DNA from: Phoronis australis
Lineage: Eukaryota > Animalia > Phoronida
Reading direction: 5' to 3'
Length of the DNA stretch: 64,000 nucleotides
Assembly: GCA_002633005.1 (NCBI GenBank)
Contig: NMRA01000152.1
Span: 484,594-548,593 of the forward strand
Numbering within the stretch: position 1 is the first letter of the stretch; the number at the start of each line of letters is the position of its first letter. A model generated the notes under the pieces. The model saw only the letters and a program-made list of their open reading frames with translations, ran no database searches and was not told the origin of the DNA. Positions 15,201-18,200 of this stretch are shown piece after piece. The position numbers and the translations under genes are program-made.

Positions 15201-18200
15201 ACGAAGACACATGCAAAATACAGCGGACAGTTGAGGCTCAACAGAAACCTGCTCTAGACAGCCAGTAATACAGCCAGCGGGCATCATGGTTACCTAGCGA
15301 CGGATTGATGAACCGTAAAAATATGACGGTGCCTATGACGGTCCAGACGGCCTCCGCCGTGCTCTGCAGGAAGCGCTGGGTCACGACCTGATGCAAACAC
15401 AGGCACATGCTGTTCAATTTGATCGGAAACCTATAGTGAATAAACGTGACAAATTGAGCAGACGTCAGTGTTGGCAATCGATTCGCCGTCTCTTGAGTTC
15501 TAACAAATGGCACAGGACAACCATTAAAACAGCACCAAATTTAGTCACACATATCACAAAACAAACTGCAATGTTCTGTCCGTCAGTCCTGTGCCAAATT
15601 TTCTATGAACTCCAAAGGCAGCGAGTGTGGTGCGGCAATAGCACTGATTATCATACCTAATACAGGATTGAAGAATCGCAGGAATGTTACGGTGCCAACA
15701 GCTACAATCCATTCATCGGGAAAGCGAGTTCCGACCACCTCGCGATATGAGTAGAGCACGTGACGAAGGGACGATGGGAACTTTGGCCGTGATTGGCTGA
15801 AAACAATGGCTACATTTCACACGGAGACACAGAGCTTCCCAAATACCATTTGAAGTCCAATGCCAAAATCAGAGAGTTGGTAGTGGGAGAGCAGTTAAAG
15901 GTTTGTGGCCAAAATTGATTGATGCCATGGCATCATAAAAACTCACAATAAATGCGTAACTTGGGTGAATGTCAATGGACAGTAACTTTTTTCAATGATT
16001 CGCGAAAATAAGTTAGTTTGTTTTAAACTAGGCCATAATTTCATTTTTCTCGAAACTACGCATAGTGACATGCAAAATGGGAATAGTATTGGATCTAAGC
16101 TCCAACTAATCCTGAAAATAAAAAGAAAAACATTCACTACACCAATAACACTGAAAAAGAATTATAGTCGAGTCAAAACACAATTAACAGTAACACACTT
16201 AACTTACTTAATAACAACTTTAATCTATAACACAATAATATAACTGGCAACTTTAAATAAAACAATGCCCCTCAGAAATAAAGTCTGACCTGAGTAACAT
16301 TGCAATTTATTAGAAACTAGACTCTTTTCACAAGACCATGTACTTTATGCAAGAACGCTGGCATCATAAAGCATTAGCAATGACAGTGACACTGTCTGGT
16401 TGAAATGAATTGCAACATCGTACATTGAAAATAGTGCTTTTTCTAACTATTTGGTTTCTGAAACTGAATTCCTCAATTCCCTAAGGAATACAATAAAAAA
16501 TCAACCAAGAATGATGCAAATGATGTAATTAGATTCGGTATGTTAACCAGTATCTCAGTCACGATCGATGTTTTCACCTTAATACGTACATCAGTAGATG
16601 GTAAATTATTGGTGTGCGAAGTCACGATGCGGGGCAAAAGGTCACACAAATGCTCAACAATGAACTAGACTGATATCTGGATTTCGACACTGATGTCATC
16701 TGGGGTTGAAATTATGCGAGAGATAAAGCTATTATCTCTTGTCGTATTTATGTTTCAAAACAGTCAGACTGTTCATAGAGTTGAAACAAAGTTTCAAGAA
16801 CAAATTAAAGTATTTAAAATCAGATAACACAATAGTTACATTCAAACAGATTGAAACAGTGACCACCTAATGTCTATAAACAAGACGTTATTTGCTCCAA
16901 ATGTATTTCACTACCAAATACTTACAGAGATATTTTAGGGATATTAATCCAAATTGAATTTATTTTATCTAACGTTAATTATGAACTGAATGTTGAAAAC
17001 AACTTTATAGCGGAAAGTGATCAAAACTAAATGTTCACTTCATGGACAGAACGTGGATTTAGAGCCAAGTTAACAAAAGGGAAAACTGAATTAACACCTT
17101 CACATTAAAGCACTAAATATCAATTGATCACACGATTCCAACCACAGTCAACATACATCACAAATATGTTCACTAAGTTTACTTCAGGTTTCATAAAGTT
17201 CTTACCTATCAGCTGACTGTACAATGGCATTGAACACCTTCTGTGTAAGAATGATGAGATTTTTCCGATTTTCTTCAAGATTTTCGTCATGCTCCACTCT
17301 AAAGAACAGACCATTGAATGTAACTACTCCACAGTCTATCGGAAATTTCCTTATAAAATTCCGTTTAGTTTCATTAAATTGAAAAATTCAATGCAAATTT
17401 CTTATTAACAGAAATATTGTAATAACAGTTTTTGATTCATATTCTTACTTAGCATGATCCACTTCGTATGATATTCCCTTCTTGTCCAGAGCTAACATTT
17501 CCGTGAGGAACGGGCTGAGCAAATCTCGAAGATAACCTTGACCGTAAACCTTGAAGCAGAACGCCATTATCTTACTGGCCAAGCTGTTACCTCGGAACAA
17601 CGTCTGCATACAGTCAGCTATCTCCACCTGAAACAGAATGGTACAGTGTACTAAAAACAATAAAATACACTACTGTCAGAACAGTCAGTGCAGAGCAGCG
17701 CAGTGCAGCGCAGCGCAGAGCAGCACAGTATAATCAGTAGAGTGCAGTACTGTACAGGCAGTTCAGTGTAATACATACAGCACAGTACAGAAGTCAGTAC
17801 ACTAAAGTGCAGCGCAGTGTAGCACAGTGCAGTGCAGAGCAGGAATAAGATGTGTTTAAGACAGCTACATAATGATTCAATTTACAAAAAAGCAGACAAT
17901 ACAATATCTAAGACAACGCAACACCATATATCCATCACACACTCAGTCATATAAGCTTACACAGTCTATTAGACCAAGGCAGTGTAACATGAATGTAAGT
18001 TCTAGAAATAATTTAACGTTCTTCTCTAAATCGTTGCAAAAACAATATTGAAAAAAACTTTCAACACCATGACAGCATTGCAGAGTAGATACAACTGCCA
18101 ATACTATACATTACAGAGTAGATACAACTGCCAATACTATACATTACAGAGTAGATACACTTTACCAAGTCGTGACTATTACCTGACAACACATTGATCC

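Follow-up and report, generated by a model that had tools for sequence, protein, structure and literature searches.

A tandem pair of alternative exons in the Ras-GAP domain of NF1 in the phoronid Phoronis australis: a probably ancient candidate splice switch of lophotrochozoans

Introduction

Tandem exon substitutions of the Martinez Gomez type are said to pair neighbouring homologous exons that agree in phase and are similar in length. Criteria for mutually exclusive exons (adjacency, homology, length, frame and bridging reads) are taken here from Hatje et al. 2017 (PMC5740500); in the accessible text of that study a frame safeguard based on decay is the commonest case in human pairs, found in 60 % of clusters. 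For exclusion by steric hindrance, the available part of the OGDH report (PMC7969005) gives a limit of <50 nt between the branch point and the upstream donor. In C. elegans unc-32 a UGCAUG site has been tested and favours the first exon in neurons (PMC3585155, accessible text).

Among the closest described systems is one in NF1 itself. Insertion of exon 23a between Q1370 and V1371 lowers the activity of human neurofibromin about tenfold, and exon 23a faces the membrane in the open state (PMC8580823, accessible text). According to the available text of PMC7437355, human R1391 forms a bridge with Ras E63, activity falls 400-fold when R1391 is lost, and S1363–H1366 contact SPRED1. Apart from R1391, the Ras-contact residues known from that source all lie outside the segment considered below.

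A preliminary description of 64,000 nt of Phoronis australis DNA (contig NMRA01000152.1, positions 484,594–548,593; hereafter the window) proposed that NF1 carries two mutually exclusive versions of the exon encoding the FLR motif of its Ras-GAP domain. The structure, expression, distribution and likely consequences of this pair, here termed exons A and B, are reported below.

Results

The first two thirds of NF1 lie on the minus strand of the window, with about 37 exons running from 40329 down to 83. On comparison with NF1 proteins these are collinear, and the gene thus has the exon order of NF1. An exon matching spinster homolog 1 (40988–41074, plus strand, E 1.8e-05) begins head to head with NF1, at a distance of <1 kb from its start codon at 40329; a promoter common to both genes is possible. 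A 300-codon open frame at 50678–51580 (plus strand) resembles the final part of a reverse transcriptase followed by a GIY-YIG nuclease and is presumably Penelope-like; a Pfam search of this frame gave no convincing match. Within NF1, 18122–18473 and 18475–18826 form a 352-bp tandem copy, 98.9 % identical, comprising part of an exon and intron. Abutting an N at 18474, this copy is likely a haplotype overlap at a scaffold join and not a real exon duplicate.

Exon A (15657–15796, minus strand, 140 nt) and exon B (15294–15430, minus strand, 137 nt) are separated by an intron of 226 nt (15431–15656, minus strand). They are flanked by an upstream constitutive exon that ends in phase 2 (17206–17298, minus strand) and a downstream constitutive exon that starts in phase 1 (11174–11348, minus strand). 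Each of the pair has an AG acceptor and a GT donor, runs from phase 2 to phase 1 and encodes an FLR motif. No third copy was found between the flanking constitutive exons. The coordinates, strand, splice ends, phases, combined length of 277 nt and both peptides given previously are therefore confirmed, with five further codons (QSRPK) belonging to exon A on the N-terminal side of the peptide then quoted. The core of exon A equals human F1357–I1397 in length, and exon B encodes that segment with a four-residue insertion, VWTV in the alignment. PDB matches of A and of B are to neurofibromin entries only (7/7 for each), at about human residues 1354–1396, and both exons match Pfam RasGAP positions 126–174 with a score below the whole-domain cut-off. 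The exons span Q1370/V1371, so that the vertebrate 23a insertion point does fall within the exon segment, as had been claimed (PMC8580823, accessible text); they replace this segment and are not a cassette of the 23a type.

When spliced in silico, A alone or B alone leaves the frame open. Inclusion of both brings a stop 82 codons after the start of the upstream exon, and omission of both brings one after 34 codons, bearing out the earlier statement that both or neither shifts the frame. The pair is adjacent, homologous, of similar length and in the same reading frame, the features by which PMC5740500 recognizes mutually exclusive exons. As regards the further feature, absence of exon-joining reads or a frameshift, the A–B junction is unlisted among the mapped reads, depth on B is zero and double inclusion stops early. 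The frame rule and the splicing of A (below) thus support the proposal of mutual exclusion. Over 33 shared codons the DNA of A agrees with that of B at only about 50 % of positions, and the pair is therefore not an assembly duplicate.

Both forms appear as separate database isoforms in at least 11 of 45 named lophotrochozoan species, all of them molluscs (Octopus bimaculoides, Ruditapes, Mya, Mytilus edulis, Crassostrea angulata, Ostrea, two Patella, Haliotis cracherodii, Gigantopelta and Pomacea), and these span cephalopods, bivalves and gastropods. Among the isoforms listed, 25 of the 45 species have the long (B-like) form only, including a chiton and two nemerteans, 7 have the short (A-like) form only, including Lingula and four annelids, and 2 have neither; the single-form counts (32/45) describe the isoforms listed and are not absences. 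The isoforms X1 and X3 of Ruditapes are identical outside the exon segment, as are X1 and X2 of Octopus, and a gene model of Elysia crispata carries a short and then a long exon in tandem. Both isoforms are thus already present in automatic annotation for at least 11 species of mollusc; in these phyla, a gene model with a single isoform chooses one exon and conceals the other. Among 177 other proteins with the segment, 175 carry one non-long copy, which upholds the proposed origin separate from that of vertebrate 23a; the two exceptions are Aplysia and one protein with a mollusc-type segment. The long form was absent from every arthropod, deuterostome and rotifer protein sampled. In Lineus longissimus (P0275–P0288) most isoforms have five extra residues directly after the long exon, which suggests a microexon or an alternative acceptor.

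In genomic DNA, a word-index protein search with exon A gave no match, and a HMMER search gave 21. Four of these 21 (P0350, P0352, P0358 and P0360), together with P0362, were set aside as repeat-like chance matches, and P0355 and P0368 as distant RasGAP-like proteins. One genomic open frame (P0351) runs without a shift of frame from a short exon of annelid-like type through an intron into a long exon; another (P0367) holds a short exon followed by an out-of-frame long exon, scoring 92 against a shuffle maximum of 46. A metagenome scan with exon B yielded 62 loci, of which 35 have a long exon. In 15 of the 35 a short exon lies upstream at a distance of 566–2159 nt, and in all 15 the short exon is 140 nt with the five extra N-terminal codons and the long exon 137 nt, as in the window. 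Where flanking exons are present in the metagenome loci their best match is mostly to annelid proteins, the short ones being uninformative. Five of the 35 (L002, L003, L004, L007 and L016) are annelid-like and join the upstream exon directly to the long exon with no short exon between. In four of them the intron before the long exon is about 100–130 nt, pointing to loss of the short exon; the pair is thus dispensable in some lineages. The other 15 long-exon loci show no upstream constitutive exon in the available DNA, and the remaining 27 of the 62 have a single non-long exon with no second copy in the available DNA. Across the 15 pairs, which are close kin and represent about one clade, dN/dS is 0.11 for the short exon and 0.02 for the long exon. 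This comparison with relatives, suggested in the preliminary description, shows purifying selection on both exons in the related loci.

By identity over the constitutive exons the window is closest to Lingula (81.1 %) and Owenia (79.8 %), followed by molluscs (73–77 %). A FastTree phylogeny of these exons places the window beside Lingula (0.92) and outside the mollusc clade (1.0), with alignment columns projected on Lingula, which biases the window–Lingula placement. Read from this gene, the source would be a lophotrochozoan outside the molluscs, probably a brachiopod or close kin. Among 45 exon peptides, grouping is by class and not by species. The long class forms one clade (UFBoot 98) with members from molluscs, nemerteans, the annelid-like open frame and exon B of the window, and exon A joins the exon of Lingula (UFBoot 87). 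On 41–45 residues the short class is poorly supported as monophyletic, with Owenia outside and a rotifer exon inside. Mean identity within class is 89.4 % for the long and 61 % for the short, and the mollusc short class has fixed features of its own. The four-residue insertion is present in 16/16 long and 0/21 short exons. The short core has the same length as in human, amphioxus and a rotifer, and the short form is therefore probably ancestral. Exon B of the window has 78.7 % mean identity with the long class, from which it departs at the near-invariant R1362, H1366 and P1377 columns.

Several independent exon duplications, or an assembly artefact, would be compatible with a short class that is not cleanly monophyletic and with the one false exon duplicate that occurs nearby in this assembly. 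This explanation is very improbable, however, given that the long class shares one insertion and one clade, that exon order and lengths are held in common, and that A and B have diverged so far in DNA. The tandem pair is very probably real and ancient. A single duplication would have preceded the divergence of molluscs, brachiopods, annelids and nemerteans; B would then have become nearly frozen after gaining its insertion in the turn that precedes the FLR helix, and A would have retained the ancestral length and drifted more. By the Cambrian record, the age of the pair would exceed 500 million years. As read from the comparison of exons, the switch appears to be ancient and common to several lophotrochozoan phyla, and not a quirk of one species.

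RNA reads from three raw P. australis runs (18–19 % of each sampled) and one contig set were mapped to 10400–19000. The junction 17206–15796 into exon A was crossed by five reads and the junction 15657–11348 out of it by eight, both from two runs; the adjacent constitutive junctions were crossed by four (17298/17449) and six (the next-exon junction downstream). Closer mapping of the three raw runs and the contig set gave a depth of 2–8 that did not extend beyond A, and none on B. Neither exon was covered in the third raw run. Exon A, which had been feared to be a dead duplicate, is live, being both spliced in and conserved. The two junctions suggested for exon B, 17206–15430 and 15294–11348, gave no reads at this low depth; the eight reads across 15657–11348 skip B, and 0/8 bounds the share of B only below about 31 %. 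No A–B joining read occurred in the three partial raw runs or the contig set. Of the earlier suggestion that both copies are functional, the part concerning A thus holds, and B is the copy that lacks reads and diverges from its class. Farther along the intron after exon B, at 13557–14417, repeat pieces with many both-strand reads and loose ends indicate a transcribed dispersed repeat.

That the switch is ancient in relatives, with B silent and starting to decay in P. australis and A constitutive, would account for the lack of reads on B beside 13 across the junctions of A, for the several changes in B at class-invariant sites and for the loss of one member elsewhere, in the annelid-like loci. 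Such silence is unlikely, as B retains an open frame, its exact length, its splice ends and FLR, and as pN is 0.155 against a pS of 0.79 in comparison with the 15 related long exons. Moreover, divergence is no smaller in A than in B, the gene as a whole has a longer branch than in Lingula, and read depth is very low. It is quite likely that both exons are used in P. australis.

Exclusion would be enforced in part by the frame: double inclusion or skipping would lead to an early stop, and nonsense-mediated decay would remove the transcript. The choice of exon is probably set by RNA-binding proteins, for which the candidate is a putative Rbfox-type site, TGCATG, behind B (15210–15215, minus strand, 79 nt downstream). 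Among 31 distinct flanks 3′ of the long exon, 12 carry the motif within 150 nt (shuffle mean 3.4, maximum 8), and it was absent from the other three kinds of flank (0/29, 0/16 and 0/16). In 11 related loci it lies 51–78 nt 3′ of the long exon; these loci are close kin and count as about one independent case, or about two with the window.

The A–B intron is predicted to form a long hairpin (15624 to 15483; fold z −2.5, 2/200 shuffles as good), noticed post hoc, whose 11-bp perfect stem was equalled in 1 of 60 control intron windows. Candidate branch points, recognized by motif, lie 71 and 189 nt from the A donor, among them CTGAC at 15468–15464. The hairpin would bring the second candidate to about 50 nt from the A donor, near the steric limit. 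Pairing of the first with the last 200 nt in each of the 15 related introns gave no hairpin of this type, and inverted repeats in 14400–17205 are weak pairs only. A CTAAC motif 68–112 nt after the short exon (14/16) was set aside as a weak candidate: it reads CTGAC in the window, it comes from loci that are kin, and it recurs in 6 of 12 outgroup loci with a single exon. In 13 related loci (L006, L010, L013, L014, L017, L020, L025, L027 and L030–L034) a GCTAAC block followed by a GCT-rich run is kept about 70–100 nt after the short exon in introns that have otherwise diverged. It could be a STAR/QKI-type site or a branch-point-like element.

The FLR arginine is retained in 21/21 short and 16/16 long exons, and both forms are therefore expected to be active GAPs. 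At the I1393 column, two residues after this arginine, 12 of 21 short exons have F or Y and 16/16 long exons have I. AlphaFold2 models of two Ruditapes GAP domains (pLDDT 76 and 73; for the long form the RasGAP fold was confirmed to be retained) differ chiefly at the turn before the FLR helix, of five versus two residues, where pLDDT is about 69–76. Exon choice would exchange two helices of the Ras-GAP domain and so yield two differently tuned neurofibromins in different tissues. The sites of difference would fall on the SPRED-contacting face of the helix, in the turn close to where 23a inserts and, in many cases, at I1393, with an effect on rate, affinity or membrane recruitment rather than on/off activity. 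From these models and alignments, we infer two active GAPs that differ in rate, affinity or recruitment.

Alternatively, both exons could be used with equal Ras-GAP activity, the pair being kept, for example, as a means of adjusting NF1 levels by unproductive splicing and decay, or for a non-Ras partner. The known Ras contacts except R1391 lie outside the exon (PMC7437355, accessible text), the frame rule permits dose control and the short class tolerates change, at 61 % mean identity, all of which are compatible with this explanation. It is nonetheless improbable. Across phyla the long class stays at 89 % identity and keeps its insertion, and the mollusc short class has fixed features of its own; this fits two distinct protein roles better than pure dose control.

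Discussion

The evidence is best read as an ancient pair of which only one exon enters each working mRNA, and as a whole it is fairly probable that this constitutes a switch between two tuned neurofibromins. That the output of the GAP domain is tuned by tissue has somewhere from an even to a fair chance of being correct, judging from sequence comparison. A fuller version, that of a tissue switch on Ras-GAP strength older than the lophotrochozoan phyla and seated at the helix pair into which exon 23a was later inserted in vertebrates, with an Rbfox-driven neuronal or muscle isoform opposed to a general one, is tentative and falls somewhat short of an even chance. If this version is true, the pair would represent a natural mutagenesis, half a billion years long, of a human tumour suppressor at its FLR helix and SPRED face. 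If the activities of the isoforms differ, two animal lineages would separately have gained splice control of one NF1 segment, and the segment would stand out as a place where Ras signalling is tuned. The pair allows a direct test in common models (Aplysia, Lymnaea, Octopus and oysters), in which learning and growth under NF1-type control can be studied. The pair also supplies natural variants of residues 1357–1397 for comparison with human variants. For R1362, the accessible literature yielded only nonsense variants and no special role.

The preliminary description knew of no earlier account of the arrangement. No paper on the NF1 pair was found in the open literature covered; subscription journals and supplements lay largely outside this scope, and catalogues of mollusc splicing may tabulate the pair. 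That statement stands as far as the papers covered are concerned, and is qualified by the mollusc isoforms already annotated automatically. By term look-up, the accessible texts of a 2025 review of exon 23a (PMC12352984) and of a review of Drosophila NF1 (PMC11048932) contain no mention of mutually exclusive exons. NF1 has 0 matches in the available main text of Hatje et al. 2017 (PMC5740500), and the accessible parts of PMC13042986 and PMC11802352 hold nothing bearing on the pair.

Several known systems resemble the pair in part. OGDH exons 4a/4b likewise are duplicated enzyme exons separated by a short intron with a stable hairpin (PMC7969005, accessible text). There, exclusion follows from a branch point near the upstream donor, whereas here the candidate is about 190 nt away in sequence, and the related introns, at 566–2159 nt, have no such stem. 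As for pairing of the Dscam docking/selector type, no conserved competing duplex rose above shuffles in six flank pairings over 16 loci, within 120–200 nt beside each exon. C. elegans unc-32 exons 7a/7b, under RBFOX control, share with the pair a UGCAUG in the intron after the second exon (PMC3585155, accessible text); the unc-32 site has a tested direction, whereas that of the window is a candidate motif whose effect could go in either direction.

The general likeness is to tandem-duplicated mutually exclusive exons as described in the available text of Hatje et al. 2017 (PMC5740500), which are adjacent, homologous, similar in length and equal in phase, shift the frame on double inclusion, and are old and constrained. 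The A/B pair differs in being confined to lophotrochozoans among the taxa sampled. A further close likeness is to vertebrate NF1 exon 23a, which affects the same gene and the same GAP-domain segment, at an insertion point inside the stretch encoded by A and B. The effect on activity has been measured for 23a (PMC8580823, accessible text) and is predicted for the A/B pair. Exon 23a, a cassette of 63 nt, inserts 21 additional residues and was found in none of the invertebrate proteins sampled, whereas in the phoronid a paralogous copy takes the place of a whole segment of 41–46 residues, FLR arginine included.
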